Assembly (NCBI GenBank): GCA_964537395.1
Contig: CAZIBN010000007.1
Span: forward strand, 2,843-66,842
Direction: 5' to 3'
DNA: 64,000 nucleotides
Source: an uncultured Elusimicrobia bacterium
GTDB lineage: Bacteria > Elusimicrobiota > Elusimicrobia > UBA1565 > UBA9628
Shown: piece by piece, positions 3,511 to 52,897 of the stretch
Layout: each line of letters opens with the position of its first letter
How positions within the stretch are numbered: position 1 is the first letter of the stretch
The notes under the pieces: model-generated
The model's input: the letters and a program-made list of their open reading frames with translations, nothing else
Database searches by the model: none
What the model was told of the DNA's origin: nothing
Made by a program: the position numbers and the translations under genes

Positions 3511-3846
3511 ATGAATGAGCTTCTGTTCAAGGCCTTCGCCGATCCGACGCGCCTGCGCCTCCTGGGCCTTTTGTCGGGACGAGAGGTGTGCGTCTGCGAT
3601 CTTATGGCCGTCTTGGGCGCGCCGCAGTCCAAGGTCTCGCAGCATCTGGCGTTCCTTCGTTCCGCGGGGCTTGTCGTTTTCCGTCAGGAGGGAAAATGGC
3701 GGCATTACGCGTTGGCCAAGCCCGCGGGCCGCGTGCACGCCCGCCTGGTGGGCTGCCTCGAGGAGTGCTTTTCCGAGATTGGCGACTTGAAGCTCGACCG
3801 TGCGAAGCTCAGGAAGATACTGCGCGCCAAGGAGAAGTGCTCATGA
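3511..3846 (+). CDS. arsR: ArsR/SmtB-family metalloregulator
   Basis: wHTH motif LFKAFADPTRLRLLGLL...EVCVCDL...SQHLAFLRSAGLV. It is first in an arsR-arsC-acr3 arrangement. A TATAAA hexamer lies 5 nt upstream of the ATG. Confidence 0.85.
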   Translation: MNELLFKAFADPTRLRLLGLLSGREVCVCDLMAVLGAPQSKVSQHLAFLRSAGLVVFRQEGKWRHYALAKPAGRVHARLVGCLEECFSEIGDLKLDRAKLRKILRAKEKCS

Positions 3847-4253
3847 ATCGCCTGCCGACCGTCCTTTTTGTGTGCATCGAGAACTCCTGCCGGTCCCAGA
3901 TGGCCGAGGGCTTCGCCCGGCGCCACGGCGCGGGAAAGGTCGCGGCCTGGAGCTCGGGCTCGCGGCCCAGCGGAAAGGTCAACGAGACGGCGATCGCGCT
4001 CATGGAGGAGAAGGGCGTGGACATGTCCTCGCACCGCTCCAAGGGCCTGGCCGAGCTCCCGGCCCAGAAGTGGGACTATGTGATCACCATGGGCTGCGGC
4101 GACGCCTGCCCCTTCGTGCCCTCGCGGGGCAAGGAGGACTGGGCGATCCCCGATCCCAAGCATCTGTCCCCCGATGAGTTCCGCAAGGTCCGCGACCTGG
4201 TCGAGAGCAAGGTCAAGGATCTCATCGCGCGGGCCGTCAAGGCGGGCGCATGA
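3843..4253 (+). CDS. arsC: arsenate reductase, LMW-PTP/thioredoxin-coupled type
   Basis: Carries the CX5R P-loop ([17 protein letters not shown]). The ATG at 3843 overlaps the arsR stop (ATGA). Confidence 0.85.
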
Positions 4254-5281
4254 CCGGCGCCAAGCTGTCGTTTCTGGACCGATACCTCACGGGCTGGATC
4301 TTCGGTGCGATGGCTTTGGGCGTGGGGCTGGGCTATTTCCTTCCGGGGGTGCCGGCTTTCGTCAATCGCTTCCAGATCGGGACGACGAACATCCCGATCG
4401 CGATCGGCCTCATCCTGATGATGTATCCGCCGCTGGCCAAGGTGCGCTATGAGGAGCTCGGCGAGGTGTTCCGGGATAAGAAGGTCCTGACGCTCTCTCT
4501 CGTGCAGAACTGGTTCGTCGGCCCCGTCCTGATGTTCGTCCTGGCCGTGGTTTTTCTGCGCGGCTATCCCGAATACATGGTGGGCCTGATCATGATCGGC
4601 CTGGCGCGCTGCATCGCCATGGTCATCGTCTGGAACGAGCTCGCCGAGGGAGACAGCCAATACGCGGCGGGGCTTGTGGCCTTGAACAGCGTGTTCCAGG
4701 TCCTCTTCTACAGCCTCTACGCCTGGTTCTTCATCACGATATTGCTTCCGATGGTCGGGCAGTCCGGCTCCGTGGTCGACGTCGGCGTCGGAGACATCGC
4801 ACGGAGCGTGTTCATCTATCTGGGCGTTCCTTTCCTGGCCGGGATGGCGACGCGGTGGGCGCTGCTGCGTTCGAAGGGGAAAGAGTGGTACGAGTCCGTC
4901 TTCATCCCGCGCGTCAGCCCGCTGACCTTGCTGTCTCTGCTCTTCACCATCGTGGTCATGTTCAGCCTCAAGGGCAAGCTCATCGTGAGCCTTCCCCTTG
5001 ATGTCCTGCGCATCGCGCTGCCGCTTCTGATCTATTTCGCGGTGATGTTCCTCCTCAGCTTCTGGATGGGGCGCAAGGCGGGGGCGGATTACTCAAGGAC
5101 GGCGACCCTCGCTTTCACCGCCGCCGGCAACAATTTCGAGCTGGCCATCGCTGTGGCCGTGGCCGTGTTCGGCATCGACTCCGGGCAGGCCTTCGCCGCG
5201 GTCATAGGCCCGCTGGTCGAGGTGCCGGCCCTCATCCTGCTGGTGGACGCATCCTTGTTCTTTAAAAAACGTTTCTTCTGA
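4250..5281 (+). CDS. acr3: ACR3-family arsenite efflux permease
   Basis: 10-TM protein, [22 protein letters not shown]..., typical ACR3 length of 343 aa. The ATG overlaps the arsC stop. Confidence 0.85.
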
Positions 5282-30242: not shown

Positions 30243-30785
30243 ATGAAACTCACTTTGCTCATCCTCACCGTTTCGCTGTTTGCCGCGGCCCCGCTTCGCG
30301 CTGAAGACAAAGCCAAGGGCGGGCCTCCCGAAGAGACGCCCTCCGGAACCCAGCCCGCCATTCCGGGCGAGCGCCCCGCGATCCCCGGCGACAAAGCCAA
30401 GGGAGGTTCACCGGAGGAGACGCCTTCCGGCACCCAACCTGCCATCCCCGGTGAGCGTCCGGCGATTCCCGGCGACAAGGAGCACAAGGGCGAGCGGGGT
30501 GAGCGCCGCGGAGATAAGCGTGAGCGCCGCAAAGAGCACAAGGGCGAACGCCGCGAGGAACGCCAAGGCGAACGCCGTGAGGAGCGCCAGGGCGAACGCC
30601 GTGAGGAACGCCAGGGCGAACGCCGCGAGGAACGCCAGGGCGAACGCCGTGAGCGTCGCGATAATGGCGTCAGAGACCATGGCCAGGGCGAGGGGCGCGG
30701 AGGGCGCGGCCAGGGAGCGGAGCGCCGACAGAGCGGTTCGCAGCGACAGGGCGGCGGTCAGCGCCGAGGCGGTCGAGGCCGCTGA
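30243..30785 (+). CDS. secreted repeat protein (2 x 28-aa DKAKGGxPEETPSGTQPAIPGERPAIPG repeats, then 5 x ERREERQG)
   Basis: AGGAGG SD 6 nt before the ATG. Signal peptide MKLTLLILTVSLFAAAPLRA. Tandem DNA repeats of 84 bp and 24 bp. Confidence 0.7.
   Translation: MKLTLLILTVSLFAAAPLRAEDKAKGGPPEETPSGTQPAIPGERPAIPGDKAKGGSPEETPSGTQPAIPGERPAIPGDKEHKGERGERRGDKRERRKEHKGERREERQGERREERQGERREERQGERREERQGERRERRDNGVRDHGQGEGRGGRGQGAERRQSGSQRQGGGQRRGGRGR
30306..30654 (+). repeat. coding tandem repeats (2 x 84 bp, then 5 x 24 bp)
   Basis: 84-bp units at 30306-30389 and 30390-30473. They differ mostly at synonymous positions. 24-bp units GGCGAACGCCG(T/C)GAGGA(A/G)CGCCA(A/G) at 30541-30654. Confidence 0.8.
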
Positions 30786-32670: not shown

Positions 32671-33512
32671 AGCAGGTCGTCGTCACGGCGGACGACTTCG
32701 GCCTCAGCCCCGAGGTCAACGAGGCGGTGATGCGCGGCCATGAGTTCGGGATCCTGAGCTGTGCGAGCCTCATGGTCGCCGCGCCGCAGGCGCACGCGGC
32801 CGCCGCCCTCGCGCGAGCGCGGCCCGGGCTCAAGGTTGGCCTTCACCTGACCCTCGCCGAGGGGAGGCCGATCCTCCCGGCGAACGAGGTGCCCGATCTC
32901 GTGGACGGCTCGGGACGCTTTCGCCCCGGGCTCGTCGGGCATGGGGCGCGCATCTTCCTATCGCCGCGCGCGCGCCGCCAGGCCGTCGCCGAGTGCCGGG
33001 CCCAGGTCGCGGCATTCCAGGCTCTGGGACTCGAGCTCGACCACCTTAACGGCCACAACCACTTTCATATCCACCCCACCATCCTGGGCGCCGTGCTTCA
33101 GATCGCCGCGAGCACGCGTATTCCTGCCGTGCGCGTGCCTTCCCAGCCGCTATCGACGATACCGCCGTCGGCGGTCTTGATGGCCGCCGTGATGGCGCCC
33201 TGGGTCGCCAGCACGCGTTCCCGGTTGAGGCGAGCGGGGATCGCCACGAACGACTGCCTCTTCGGTCTGTTCGAGACCGGCGCGATGGTCGAAAGCGCCT
33301 GGCTGCGGCTGATACCGCTCCTGCCCGACGGGCTCACCGAGATCTACTGCCACCCCGCGACGGCGACGGTCGGCCTGCTGCGGGAGACGATGCCCGATTA
33401 CCGGCACGCCGAGGAGCTCGCGGCGCTGACGAGCCCGCGCGTGCGCGAAGCCCTTGAGCGCTCGGGCGCGAGGCTGACCTCTTTCTCGCAGGCCTTCGCT
33501 CCCGCCGCATGA
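32667..33512 (+). CDS. YdjC-family carbohydrate deacetylase (HpnK/NaxD-like)
   Basis: N-terminus VKQVVVTADDFGLSPEVNEAV and HLNGHNHFHIHP match the YdjC/ChbG family. The GTG overlaps the GT2 stop (GTGA). Confidence 0.7.
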   Translation: MKQVVVTADDFGLSPEVNEAVMRGHEFGILSCASLMVAAPQAHAAAALARARPGLKVGLHLTLAEGRPILPANEVPDLVDGSGRFRPGLVGHGARIFLSPRARRQAVAECRAQVAAFQALGLELDHLNGHNHFHIHPTILGAVLQIAASTRIPAVRVPSQPLSTIPPSAVLMAAVMAPWVASTRSRLRRAGIATNDCLFGLFETGAMVESAWLRLIPLLPDGLTEIYCHPATATVGLLRETMPDYRHAEELAALTSPRVREALERSGARLTSFSQAFAPAA

Positions 33513-33892
33513 TCGCGACGACCCTCGTCCTCGTCTTGTCGGTCCTCTTCTCCGCGTACGGCAACGTGCTCACGCGTCGCGGCATGACCGAGCTTGGCCC
33601 TCTCGAGGACTTCCGTCCGCGACATCTTCTGCGCTACGGCTGGGCGGCTGTACGCAACCGGCACGTGCTGGCCGGGGTGGCCATCAACTTCGGGCAGTTC
33701 CTGGCCTGGCTCGTCGTGCTGTCCTGGGCGGAGCTGAGCTGGGCGCTGCCGATGAACGCGATCGAGTACATCTTCGTCGCGGCGCTGGCGTATAAGATGC
33801 TGGGCGAGCGTTTGGAGCCGCGCCGGCTCGCCGGGATCGGGATCATCGCCGTCGGCGTGTTCCTCACGATGTTCTCGTGGAAGGGGCCCTGA
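33509..33892 (+). CDS. 4-TM EamA/SMR-like small membrane protein (ArnE/ArnF-like flippase subunit candidate)
   Basis: 127 aa. The ATG overlaps the upstream stop (ATGA). Confidence 0.6.
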   Translation: MIATTLVLVLSVLFSAYGNVLTRRGMTELGPLEDFRPRHLLRYGWAAVRNRHVLAGVAINFGQFLAWLVVLSWAELSWALPMNAIEYIFVAALAYKMLGERLEPRRLAGIGIIAVGVFLTMFSWKGP

Positions 33893-34311
33893 TGCGGCGC
33901 GCGCTCGGCGTCGTCTTTCTCGCCACGATCTGCGGGTGCGCGGGCCATCTTTGCCTACGGGAAGGCATGATCGGCGTGGGGGCCCTGTCCGGCTCGTCCC
34001 CGGCCGCGCTGATCGCCTTTTTCGGGGCGGCGGCGTCCAGCCCCTGGATATGGCTCGGGATCGCGTTTGAGATCGCCTACTCGCTTCTTTGGCTCGCGGT
34101 CCTGTCCTGGTCCGAGATATCCTGGGCAGTGCCGATGAACGCGCTCGAGTATGTCCTGGCGGCCGCGGCGGCCTACGCCTTGCTTGGCGAGCCCATCGGG
34201 CCTCTACGCCTGGCGGGGATCGCTTTGATCTGCGTCGGCGTGGCGATGCTCAGCGGTTCGTGGGTTCAGGCCGGAACGGCGACCGACGCGTCCTTGACCC
34301 ACCGGATATAG
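33892..34311 (+). CDS. second 4-TM EamA/SMR-like protein (ArnE/ArnF-like partner)
   Basis: The ATG overlaps the upstream stop (TGATG). It is a paralogue of the 33509 gene. Its last 23 codons lie in direct-repeat copy A. Confidence 0.6.
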   Translation: MRRALGVVFLATICGCAGHLCLREGMIGVGALSGSSPAALIAFFGAAASSPWIWLGIAFEIAYSLLWLAVLSWSEISWAVPMNALEYVLAAAAAYALLGEPIGPLRLAGIALICVGVAMLSGSWVQAGTATDASLTHRI

Positions 34312-34323
34312 CTTTCGGAGCCC
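34243..34323. repeat. direct repeat copy A (81 bp)
   Basis: Matches 35092-35172 at 79 of 81 positions. Covers the last 23 codons of the second EamA-like gene plus 12 nt. Confidence 0.8.
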
Positions 34324-34375
34324 TCATGGTCACTGGTGTAAGGCGGGGCGGGCTGTTATACTCTAGGGACCTGAT

Positions 34376-34594
34376 ATGGGGAAAATCGCCCGAGTCGTTA
34401 AGATCGTTCCGCTTGAGCGCGATGAGGATGAAGCCTCTCTTGAGTACCGCGCGGGCTGTCTTGCGTTGTCTCCAGACGAACGGGTCGCTGAAATGCGCAG
34501 GTTGAGCCGGCGCATCATCTCGCTCAATCCTCGAAATCCGCGCTCTCCTCATATTGAACGGAGCATGGTGCGGGTAGTCCATGACGCCGTCTAA
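34376..34594 (+). CDS. small hypothetical protein (72 aa), possible antitoxin-like partner of the downstream nucleotidyltransferase
   Basis: TGTTATACT lies 13 nt upstream. Overlaps the next gene by 14 nt. No recognisable motif. Confidence 0.4.
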   Translation: MGKIARVVKIVPLERDEDEASLEYRAGCLALSPDERVAEMRRLSRRIISLNPRNPRSPHIERSMVRVVHDAV

Positions 34595-35045
34595 CGACGA
34601 GCCGTTGGACGATTACGAGGAGCTCATCTCGTGCCTCAACGTGCATGGCGTCGAGTATGTGATCATCGGGGCCTATGCCGTCGGCTTCCACGGCTATATC
34701 CGGGCCACCAGCGACATGGACATAGCTGTTGATCCTGCGCCGCCGAATGCCGTTAAGCTCGCGGCGGCCCTCAAGGATTTCGCCGGGGTCGAGATCGATC
34801 CGGCGGACATCAAAGAGAAAACGCTTCTCGAGCTTGGTCGGGATCCGAACAGCGTGGATATCATCACGACCATGAAAGGTTTGGCGTGGGAACGCGCATG
34901 GACGCTGCGGGTCGCCGGCCATGTCGGCAAGGCGCCCGCGTCGTTCCTCTCCAGGGAATGCCTCATCGAGAACAAGCTCGCGACCGGCCGTGAGCGCGAT
35001 TACCTCGACTTGAAGGGGATCGGCGCCGAGTTCAAAAAGCCCTGA
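34581..35045 (+). CDS. minimal nucleotidyltransferase-fold protein (pol-beta superfamily, MNT/AbiEii-like)
   Basis: NTase signature GAYAVGFHGYIRATSDMDIAV (hG[GS]x9-13 DhD). Confidence 0.55.
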   Translation: MTPSNDEPLDDYEELISCLNVHGVEYVIIGAYAVGFHGYIRATSDMDIAVDPAPPNAVKLAAALKDFAGVEIDPADIKEKTLLELGRDPNSVDIITTMKGLAWERAWTLRVAGHVGKAPASFLSRECLIENKLATGRERDYLDLKGIGAEFKKP

Positions 35046-35091
35046 TCAGTCGAGCCCGCCCCTGTTGCCATGAAGGGGCTTCTGCGGCGTC

Positions 35092-35172
35092 GCGATGCTC
35101 AGCGGCTCGTGGGTTCAGGCCGGAACGGCGACCGACGCGTCCTTGACCCACCGGATATAGCTCTCGGAGCCC
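35092..35172. repeat. direct repeat copy B (81 bp)
   Basis: Covers the last 19 codons of the epimerase gene (minus strand) plus 23 nt downstream. Confidence 0.8.
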
Positions 35173-36032
35173 GCGTCGAAGCCGACCGTCGGCTCCCAGC
35201 CGAGGAGCTTCTTGGCCTTCACGCCGCTGACGAGCTTGGCGTCGAGGTCGCCGCTGCGGGCCTCGATGTAGCGGATCTCGGCGTCGGGGAAGGACGCCTT
35301 GACCTTATCGGCGACCTGGCGGACCGAGACCTTCTCGATGCCTTCGAGGTTGATGATCTGGTTGGCGGCCTCGGGCTTGAGGGCGGCGACGTTGCCCAGG
35401 GCGAGGTCTTCCACGTAGACGAAGCGGCGCCACGCGCTGCCGTCGCCCTGGATCACGATGGGCTGCTTCTTGATCGCGCGCGCGACGAAGGTGGCGAGCA
35501 CGGTTCCCATGCGGGCGCGGGGCCCGTAGGGGATGCCGTAGCGCAGGATGGTCGTCTCGATGCCGTAGAGCTTCTGGTAGGCGACGCAGGCCATCTCGGC
35601 GGCGACCTTCGAGGCCGTGTAGACGTGGCCGACCTTGTTGATGGAGAGAGGGGTCTCCTCGTCGACTTCGGGCGCGTCGGTCATGCCGTACACCCAGGTC
35701 GTGCTGGCGAGGATGACGCGCTTGATGCCGGTGCGGCGCGCGGCCTCGAGCACGTGGGTCACCGCCATCACATTGGTGTTCATGCTCTCGACGGGGATGT
35801 GGTAGACGTCGTTGACGTTGGCGACGGCGGCGAGGATGTACACCGCGTCATAGCCGCCGGCCAGGGAGACGGTGGTGCGGCCCTGATCGGAGATGTCGGT
35901 GACGATGTGGCGGACGTCGCGCCGGTGGGGGGTCATGATGTCGAACACGGTGACCTCATGCCCCGCGTCGATGAGCTTGTCGACGACGTGCGAACCGATG
36001 AAACCTGAACCGCCGATGACTCCTACGCGCAT
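35115..36032 (-). CDS. NAD-dependent epimerase/dehydratase (SDR; UDP-sugar 4-epimerase or ArnA-C/UXS-like decarboxylase)
   Basis: Rossmann motif VIGGSGFIGSHVV and catalytic YTASK. Confidence 0.75.
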   Translation of the reverse strand: MRVGVIGGSGFIGSHVVDKLIDAGHEVTVFDIMTPHRRDVRHIVTDISDQGRTTVSLAGGYDAVYILAAVANVNDVYHIPVESMNTNVMAVTHVLEAARRTGIKRVILASTTWVYGMTDAPEVDEETPLSINKVGHVYTASKVAAEMACVAYQKLYGIETTILRYGIPYGPRARMGTVLATFVARAIKKQPIVIQGDGSAWRRFVYVEDLALGNVAALKPEAANQIINLEGIEKVSVRQVADKVKASFPDAEIRYIEARSGDLDAKLVSGVKAKKLLGWEPTVGFDAGSESYIRWVKDASVAVPA

Positions 36033-46981: not shown

Positions 46982-47025
46982 AGTTATCCCCAACACTTTC
47001 AACGTTGGAAACGCTGGGGATAACT
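46982..47025. repeat. 44-bp nested palindrome AGTTATCCCCA..CAACGTTG..TGGGGATAACT
   Basis: Lies between convergent genes. A second copy, about 40 of 44 identical, is at 52854-52897. Confidence 0.7.
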
Positions 47026-52853: not shown

Positions 52854-52897
52854 AATTATCCCCATCACTTCCAACGTTGGAAACGCTGGGGATAACT
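52854..52897. repeat. second copy of the 44-bp nested palindrome
   Basis: AATTATCCCCATCACTTCCAACGTTGGAAACGCTGGGGATAACT, immediately 3' of the murC stop. Confidence 0.7.

Follow-up and report, generated by a model that had tools for sequence, protein, structure and literature searches.

Restriction-modification (RM) units are known to enter chromosomes by insertion with long target duplication, which was described first from Helicobacter and later from many bacteria (Nobusato et al. 2000, Gene 259:99; Furuta, Abe and Kobayashi 2010, NAR 38:2428; PMC2853133). Such units lie between direct repeats of 46-423 bp and carry no mobility genes (PMC2853133; reviewed in PMC3874152), and their repeats map to one copy at the empty site, sometimes overlapping the 3' ends of genes (PMC2853133). 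Long target duplication was also extended to 'other DNAs' (PMC3457768), and the authors of the RM work suspected cargo-encoded DNA breakage as its cause (PMC2853133). Here we describe a comparable locus in a 64,000-nucleotide (nt) stretch of DNA from an uncultured Elusimicrobia bacterium (contig CAZIBN010000007.1, positions 2,843 to 66,842 of the forward strand; hereafter the window). Its cargo is a pair of overlapping genes for a protein of 72 amino acids (aa) and a 154-aa minimal nucleotidyltransferase (NTase), and its target is the tail-to-tail overlap between an EamA-like half-transporter gene and a sugar epimerase gene. We read the locus, with a probability of about 0.7, as a horizontally acquired, MenT1-like addiction-type cassette that inserted into a two-gene overlap with duplication of ~90 nt and without integrase, transposase or attC site.

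The history of this insertion appears well supported by comparison with two relatives, which were found by scanning species-representative genomes with the epimerase protein and are both Elusimicrobia metagenome-assembled genomes (MAGs) from groundwater—nzgw213 (locus L008), with an epimerase 96% identical in amino acid sequence, and nzgw214 (locus L009), at 89%. In both, the EamA-like gene ends at position 4873 and the epimerase gene at 4918 with nothing between them, which matches exactly the 46-nt ancestral overlap of convergent genes that an earlier reading of the window, made from its sequence alone, had proposed. Searches of L008 and L009 against the window with blastn returned two collinear blocks that stop at window position 34325, resume at 35085 (positions 4859 and 4948 of L008, respectively) and overlap by 90-91 nt in the relatives. 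Across ~5.6 kb of synteny, the sole difference is a 759-bp insert together with a second copy of the 90-nt target. Both relatives carry an insert-free allele with a single target copy, and these empty sites and their breakpoints bear out the claim that insertion duplicated the overlap and kept both flanking reading frames intact. Each window copy differs from the relatives at 9-13 positions and the copies differ from each other at 5, while three derived bases common to both copies are absent from both relatives; for these reasons, we date the duplication to the window's lineage, after its split from both relatives.

The repeats themselves were delimited in two ways. A repeat finder gives an ungapped direct repeat of 88 nt (34236-34323 and 35085-35172; 97% identity; blastn E = 1e-35), and self-comparison of the 64-kb window found no other long direct-repeat pair with kb-scale spacing. 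The synteny breakpoints against nzgw213 and nzgw214 set the duplicated target at 90-91 nt (34236-34325 and 35085-35174), with mismatches at 5 of 92 aligned positions and a 759-nt insert between the copies (34326-35084); repeats and insert are real, as the sequence-only reading held, and only the sizes it gave, 81 bp and 770 bp, were slightly off. In gapped alignment, the right copy may reach ~15-25 nt further leftward, with small deletions. Both stop codons do recur in each copy: the left holds the EamA-like stop (TAG, 34309-34311) together with the epimerase stop in complement (TCA, 34266-34268), and the right holds the functional epimerase stop (TCA, 35115-35117) and TAG at 35158-35160. None of the five differences between the copies lies within the 46-nt core, which remains coding in each, the relic of the epimerase tail in the left copy keeps its frame (EGSESYIRWVKDASVAVPA, followed by the stop), and the EamA-like orthologs in L008 and L009 terminate at an identical ATATAG. 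The insert has a GC content of 57-60%, against 66-70% in its flanks (~8-10 points lower). The features of the locus, with open reading frames (ORFs) and ratios of non-synonymous to synonymous substitution (dN/dS), are as follows:

33877-34311, plus strand: EamA-like half-transporter gene (ArnE/ArnF-like, 144 aa), the left host gene; an ORF with its last 76 nt within the left repeat
34236-34325, unstranded: left target copy, with the functional EamA-like 3' end and a relic of the epimerase 3' end
34326-35084, plus strand: foreign insert (whole cassette), absent from L008 and L009 with exact breakpoints; lower GC
34331-34375, plus strand: upstream block CACTGGTG..GGGCTGTTATACTC, a putative promoter, conserved across five contexts
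34376-34594, plus strand: 72-aa ORF, putative antitoxin; 13 homologs; dN/dS 0.05-0.11
34581-35045, plus strand: 154-aa minimal NTase (MenT1 / TM1012 / DUF6036-like), putative toxin; 59 homologs; dN/dS 0.09-0.18
35046-35084, plus strand: 3' spacer of the insert, with a short hairpin (GCCCCT-N10-AGGGGC)
35085-35174, unstranded: right target copy, with the functional epimerase 3' end and a relic of the EamA-like tail (TAG 35158-35160)
35115-36032, minus strand: NAD-dependent sugar epimerase/dehydratase gene (305 aa), the right host gene; Pfam Epimerase E=2e-48; orthologs 96% and 89% identical

Furuta et al. (2010) delimited their RM units by repeats of >30 bp, an empty site in a relative, an insert of <20 kb, a lack of integrase, transposase and phage genes, and a repeat that is not a tRNA. 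The window agrees with this description in repeat length, empty site, insert size, lack of mobility genes and non-tRNA repeat, and departs from it in cargo, which is an NTase and a 72-aa protein where an RM unit was specified. Neither an integrase nor a transposase was found in the 5.6-kb synteny block, where the insert holds only the two ORFs, and a tRNA scan found none. Two other classes of element were considered and set aside: an integron cassette, as the repeats are host gene ends with neither GTTRRRY nor RYYYAAC core sites and no array, and a classical DNA transposon or miniature inverted-repeat transposable element, as the duplication is 90 nt (not <30 bp) and the only inverted repeat is internal, 10 nt long and unconserved across copies. 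The latter is perfect and lies near the insert ends (GGGGCGGGCT, 34346-34355; AGCCCGCCCC, 35053-35062); it is not conserved in cassette copies L005 or L007, with none at all in L005. A 7-nt G-rich/C-rich pair occupies similar positions in copy L001.

Within the insert, the overlapping ORF pair first noticed in the sequence was confirmed from the ORF table, with an overlap of 14 nt that is the same wherever the pair co-occurs on homologous contigs. In five independent contexts (the window, L109, L110, L007 and L001), homology begins abruptly at CACTGG, 45 nt before the start codon (34331). By blastn, its onset lies at 34331-34333, which leaves only 5 nt between the left repeat and the conserved cassette block. 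Homology across copies stops at the NTase stop codon, and the 3' spacer (35046-35084) showed no blastn homology to other cassette copies. We read TGT-TATACT in the upstream block as a putative extended -10 promoter; an Rfam search of the region gave no match. In comparison with L007, a 90%-identical copy, the small ORF has a dN/dS of 0.05 and the NTase one of 0.09; against more distant copies the values are 0.11-0.18, and both ORFs look like real genes under strong purifying selection. The MAG nzgw214, empty at the epimerase locus, has a 76%-identical cassette between a surA-like gene and mfd. Judged by these comparisons, the pair is a conserved, mobile unit that recurs in unrelated genomic contexts, and we regard it as a foreign two-gene module, probably a toxin with its antidote. 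Phage records contain no homolog of the NTase, and plasmids contain 10 distant ones, annotated as DUF6036 family. One copy has a larger setting: in L001 (1263-7053; also L003), direct repeats of ~200 nt, 95% identical, surround a 5.6-kb segment with a 72-aa plus 156-aa cassette, an ORF of 497 aa and another that weakly matches Y2 (IS91-type) transposases, and this repeat-bracketed segment is possibly a larger integrated element. A tRNA scan of L001-L005 found none, and tRNA-linked integration was dropped for these loci on that ground.

We identified 59 homologs of the NTase at 49-93% identity, and a metagenome scan yielded at least 528 relatives. An AlphaFold model built from a 49-sequence alignment (predicted local distance difference test score, pLDDT, 91.6; predicted template modelling score, pTM, 0.87) was compared with the PDB using Foldseek. 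TM1012 ranked first (E=4e-5) and Mycobacterium tuberculosis MenT1 second, both alone and in the MenAT1 complex (8an5_B, E=8.4e-5, TMq 0.67), with LnuA and ANT(2'')-Ia next in rank. When the family profile was searched against PDB sequences, MenT1 was the sole near-significant match (E=0.034) and was aligned over nearly the whole length. In this profile alignment, residues T43, D45, D47, K132 and D143 of the window NTase, each invariant or at least 90% conserved among the 49 family sequences, align with T39, D41, D43, K137 and D152 of MenT1, its phospho-acceptor and catalytic residues (PMC10435456, PMC11375011). By homology, we infer that the window NTase most likely acts as a toxin by adding nucleotides to the 3' ends of tRNA.

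The family placement suggested earlier, TA- (toxin-antitoxin) or AbiE/MNT-like with DUF6036, stands at the level of the superfamily. Against DUF6036 (PF19502), the window NTase scores 13.4 bits (E=0.067) and fails the gathering cutoff of 23.6, while distant homologs at 40-44% identity pass it (L051, 40.0 bits; L107, 37.7 bits) and a homolog in L089 passes DUF2204 (PF09970), the family of TM1012. PF08843 (AbiEii/DUF1814) does not match the window NTase and matches 9 of 49 family members (best E=0.0064); NCBIfam MntA gives 18.1 bits (E=0.0018) against a cutoff of 60. The NTase belongs to a divergent subfamily, with DUF6036 membership at superfamily level only. The cassette is not a pair of the MNT-HEPN kind (MntA/HepT, a type VII TA system): the partner is the 72-aa protein, which has no HepT match in Pfam or NCBIfam, and a HEPN partner is lacking. 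Neither PADLOC nor PHROGs matched either cassette ORF.

The 72-aa partner likewise lacks a match in Pfam and NCBIfam. Its 13 homologs are every one 72 aa long, at 64-93% identity. In the sister cassettes L029-L035, where the NTase is 57-72% identical, the upstream gene instead encodes ~190 aa with the same 14-nt overlap; residues ~120-190 of these proteins are 53-67% identical to the 72-aa protein, and their N-termini show weak matches to MarR and HTH_5 (ArsR-type) helix-turn-helix (HTH) domains. Taken together, the C-terminal identity and the N-terminal HTH matches identify the 72-aa protein as a stand-alone version of the C-terminal domain of a DNA-binding partner. By analogy, the 190-aa partner, with its fused winged HTH (wHTH), would have the usual design of an autoregulating antitoxin, and the 72-aa protein the design expected of an antitoxin minus its autoregulatory domain. 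An exhaustive profile search of 1.84 billion proteins found only 11 partner clusters at 50% identity, with short (58-85 aa) and long (136-191 aa) forms both present, and more distant relatives also have ORFs of ~65-70 aa before the NTase with a related E-Y-W/R...P-x-E-R-L/V motif (compared by eye).

From these observations, we infer how the locus may have formed. A 0.76-kb cassette with its own putative promoter, an antitoxin-like gene for the 72-aa protein and a MenT1-like NTase gene most likely entered the 46-nt overlap of the ArnF-like and epimerase genes, and ~90 nt of target were copied, leaving each flanking gene a complete 3' end. Because the target is an overlap of two genes, no insertion other than a duplicating one could have spared both the flippase-subunit gene and the epimerase gene. 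Host repair or replication would have made the duplication, either through a staggered break with fill-in and end-joining or through template switching. The cassette would then be retained by selection, both through its addictive property and through the need for two intact host genes, with recombination between the repeats as a potential way out. The translationally coupled 72-aa protein would neutralise the NTase, possibly by sequestration, by induced autophosphorylation of Thr43 or by both.

Repeat-bracketed cassettes were also found at other loci. We compared upstream with downstream NTase flanks in 79 fetched loci and then self-compared 600 kb, keeping repeat pairs of at least 60 nt and at least 75% identity that lie 400-1600 nt apart; the sample is small and opportunistic. 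This yielded 23 direct-repeat pairs, 9 of which bracket this NTase family (54 loci had enough flank). Of the other pairs, most surround different TA cassettes that chanced to be present in the flanks. Six TA cassettes besides that of the window have brackets of 86-283 nt—three MenT-like, two MntA/HepT and one ParE—and in five of the six these are verified host-gene ends. Among the MenT-like cassettes, the duplication covers 256 nt that extend from the stop codon into a yhbY-like gene (L051), the final 94 nt of a 2-oxoacid dehydrogenase E2 acyltransferase gene (L105) or 95 nt of the 3' end of a TauE-family gene (L107), in each case with the intact gene on one side of the cassette and a relic on the other. 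The MntA/HepT cassettes lie in L107, with 144 nt of the 3' end of a hydantoinase gene duplicated, and in an ANME-1 archaeal MAG (L012:498-1468), where the 86-nt repeat spans a purine-rich 5' untranslated region plus codons 1-8 of a DegT aminotransferase gene. The ParE-type toxin with its 80-aa partner (L028:2967-4175) is flanked by 283-nt direct repeats, 85% identical, and is not counted as a verified host-gene end. These cases suggest that long target duplication may be common for addiction cassettes in general.

Several features of these loci deserve separate mention. The two cassettes of L107 (1429-2680, MntA/HepT; 3556-4949, the MenT-like pair) share one 5-kb metagenome contig, the MNT ORF of L012 opens with the duplicated DegT start (MKIPAAKI), and the relic in L105 is still an open E2-like tail (LDHRVSDGAEAAQFMQ...). 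Other repeat pairs proved not to be target duplications: those of L074 (200-4330) and L089 (3182-4096) belong to arrays of hairpin or REP-like (repetitive extragenic palindromic) intergenic repeats of ~90-125 nt (e.g., CCGCAGGTTGAAAACCTGCGG), among which the NTase cassettes lie and in which no integron core sites were found, those of L090 are shared 5' regions of adjacent cassettes, and those of L078 are ABC paralogs. The repeats of L064, around a 166-aa plus 61-aa pair, were left out of the target-duplication count.

Against the reading of a MenT1-like addiction cassette duplicated into place stand a number of observations. The NTase falls under the curated thresholds of DUF6036, AbiEii and MntA, with no PADLOC match, and its fold also resembles the small-molecule NTases LnuA (Foldseek E=6e-4) and ANT(2'')-Ia, at TM scores of 0.58-0.60. 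The profile of the 72-aa protein finds no PDB chain, MenA1 of 8an5 included, and its structural model (strand, two helices, strand) is poor, at a pLDDT of 62.8. Scans of the region for a consensus sigma-70 promoter and for terminators gave no match. All comparators are MAGs or metagenome contigs. Finally, the two copies in L105 (1306-1399 and 2093-2186) are only 77% identical, with 12 of their 23 differences at third codon positions (hand count). The low identity and third-position bias suggest that, at this locus at least, one copy evolved in a functional gene of another lineage and came in with the cassette instead of arising there by duplication, which would imply spread by a circle and homologous recombination, not de novo duplication.

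The protein matches bear on an alternative that shares the insertion history but denies the toxin: the NTase could be an antibiotic-modifying enzyme like LnuA or ANT(2''), or an MntA-like antitoxin or regulator, with the 72-aa protein as a regulator or chaperone. The LnuA and ANT(2'')-Ia folds are joined on this side by weak Aminoglyc_resit matches in 29 of 49 family members, the sub-cutoff NCBIfam MntA match and the silence of PADLOC. We nevertheless consider it somewhat unlikely, given that MenT1 and TM1012 are the best whole-protein matches in sequence and structure, that an invariant threonine occupies the position of the MenT1 phospho-acceptor T39, and that there is no HEPN partner; moreover, an obligatory, overlapping small upstream partner, wHTH-fused in sister cassettes, is typical of a TA operon, and the pair forms a compact mobile unit like other TA cassettes.

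The L105 copies lead to a different account of the repeats, Campbell-type integration, in which a circle bearing the cassette and one 90-nt copy, excised from a closely related strain via the same repeats, entered by a RecA-mediated single crossover or through a recombinase acting in trans (as for a cis-mobilizable element, CIME). The repeats would then be attL/attR-like and would not have arisen de novo at this site. Repeats of 86-341 nt are long enough for homologous recombination to use, the L105 relic keeps an open E2-like frame with third-position-biased differences, and in the window 3 of the 5 differences between copies are synonymous when read in the frame of the gene concerned, with the ancestral base at 34324 in the left copy. 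Furuta et al. also propose a cycle of invasion, amplification and release for repeat-flanked RM units (PMC2853133). Yet this account merely relocates the origin of the first duplication, and the three shared derived bases, absent from the relatives, would require a donor of nearly the same lineage. That the host sequence of the repeats varies from locus to locus speaks against a single dedicated site-specific recombinase, and the 5.6-kb synteny block contains no integrase. For the window, we find it unlikely.

Less probable again, and in our view very doubtful, is that duplication came first: a 90-nt tandem duplication uncoupled the two genes, and the cassette landed later in the new junction. 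Tandem duplication plus recombination has been put forward as another way to form similar structures in rRNA operons (PMC3457768), and the uncoupling of overlapping genes could be selectively tolerated. But neither relative has a duplication-only allele, only 5 nt lie between left repeat and conserved block, and the same geometry occurs at genes that do not overlap (L051, L105, L107 and L012), where uncoupling would bring no benefit. We give scarcely any credence to an ancestral cassette precisely lost by repeat recombination in the nzgw213 and nzgw214 lineages; recombination between 90-nt repeats would restore exactly the overlap of L008 and L009, but two independent losses or a different tree would be needed, the insert is ~8-10 GC points below its flanks, the copies differ less from each other (5 positions) than from the relatives (9-13) and share derived bases, and the 76%-identical cassette elsewhere in nzgw214 indicates that the pair moves.

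Insertion of an addiction-type cassette with duplication of its target therefore remains our preferred reading, and we advance, tentatively and as a possibility only, a broader one—that long target duplication is a general route by which naked two-gene addiction cassettes (MenT-like, MntA/HepT, ParE) enter chromosomes without mobility genes. As most of these toxins do not cut DNA, the duplication would on this broader reading be made by a host pathway and not by cleavage from the cargo, and the finding weakens the view of cargo-encoded DNA cleavage as the driver. If it is true, repeats of 85-340 nt would allow the cassette to leave as a circle and enter related genomes again through homologous recombination, in a recombination-parasitic life cycle, and the window would be an unusually clean example. 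The spread of TA cassettes without transposases or integrases is poorly understood, and the locus provides a testable lead: a fully resolved before/after pair, with an empty 46-nt overlap on one side and a filled 90-nt duplication on the other. Repeat-bracketed TA cassettes make the idea testable at scale through empty and filled sites in pangenomes. In addition, the compact, putatively MenT1-like NTase and its new small partner could offer a tractable minimal system for the study of NTase toxins.

The host genes belong to a cell-envelope glycolipid cluster with the layout of an Arn-like (lipid-linked aminosugar) pathway. The EamA-like ORF matches Pfam EamA just below threshold (E=7.5e-6; 26.7 bits against a cutoff of 28.2) and NCBIfam ArnE at E=7.6e-7, and it is the second of two tandem EamA-like half-transporter genes (33509-34311; 127 and 144 aa) with 71% nucleotide identity over 153 nt. 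Their neighbours in the cluster encode a GT21 glycosyltransferase, a YdjC-type deacetylase, the epimerase and a DegT aminotransferase. Exact-sequence look-ups found neither the window epimerase nor the window NTase on record. Elsewhere in the window, a 42-nt palindrome (TTATCCCCA...TGGGGATAA) occurs in two copies, 95% identical and 5872 nt apart (46984-47025 and 52856-52897), both apparently at gene ends from ORF coordinates alone and with a REP-like or bidirectional-terminator-like look, and positions 30306-30677 hold a pair of 84-nt tandem units (81% identical) and, after them, six tandem units of 24 nt, which probably form repetitive coding sequence.

How, then, does the locus compare with described systems? 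With DUF6036 and DUF2204 NTases, the cassette shares homologs at 40-44% identity that pass these families, and TM1012 as its top structural match; it differs in its own score (13.4 against 23.6 bits) and in a small partner confined to 11 clusters. The resemblance to MenAT1 of M. tuberculosis (Rv0078B-Rv0078A) lies in a small upstream ORF followed by a minimal NTase, a shared fold (TM 0.67) and five conserved residues, whereas the window NTase is only ~22% identical to MenT1, is shorter (154 against ~190 aa) and falls below the Pfam threshold of AbiEii/DUF1814, and its 72-aa partner is unlike MenA1. In E. coli, MenT1 shows no toxicity (PMC10435456). The partner of L029-L035, a wHTH plus C-terminal domain, resembles the design of AbiEi (type IV TA), likened by layout only; unlike in AbiEi/AbiEii, the window partner has no HTH domain, and the window NTase, which fails PF08843, is roughly half as large as AbiEii. 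Prophages and islands such as phage 21 and e14, both in icd, insert into the 3' end of a protein gene and supply a replacement end, and in these too direct repeats derived from the host gene 3' end keep the gene intact. Elements of this type carry their own tyrosine integrase and use a fixed att site, in contrast to the window cassette, which comes with no recombinase and has repeats made of other host sequence from one locus to the next.

The closest likeness is to the RM units themselves, with which the window shares a compact selfish or addiction unit, the lack of a mobility gene, long direct repeats and deviant GC. Among the papers searched, none was found to describe classical TA cassettes inserted with long target duplication, and the locus ties a TA-like cassette to a mode of insertion so far documented for RM units. 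The phenomenon and the protein superfamily are both known; what is new is their combination, with TA-type cargo, a two-gene overlap as the target, a host from the Elusimicrobia and an unannotated partner family. Unlike in RM units, the cargo is TA-like, such that an explanation through DNA cleavage is not obviously applicable, the target is a two-gene overlap in which two frames are rescued at once, and the host is an uncultured member of the Elusimicrobia.

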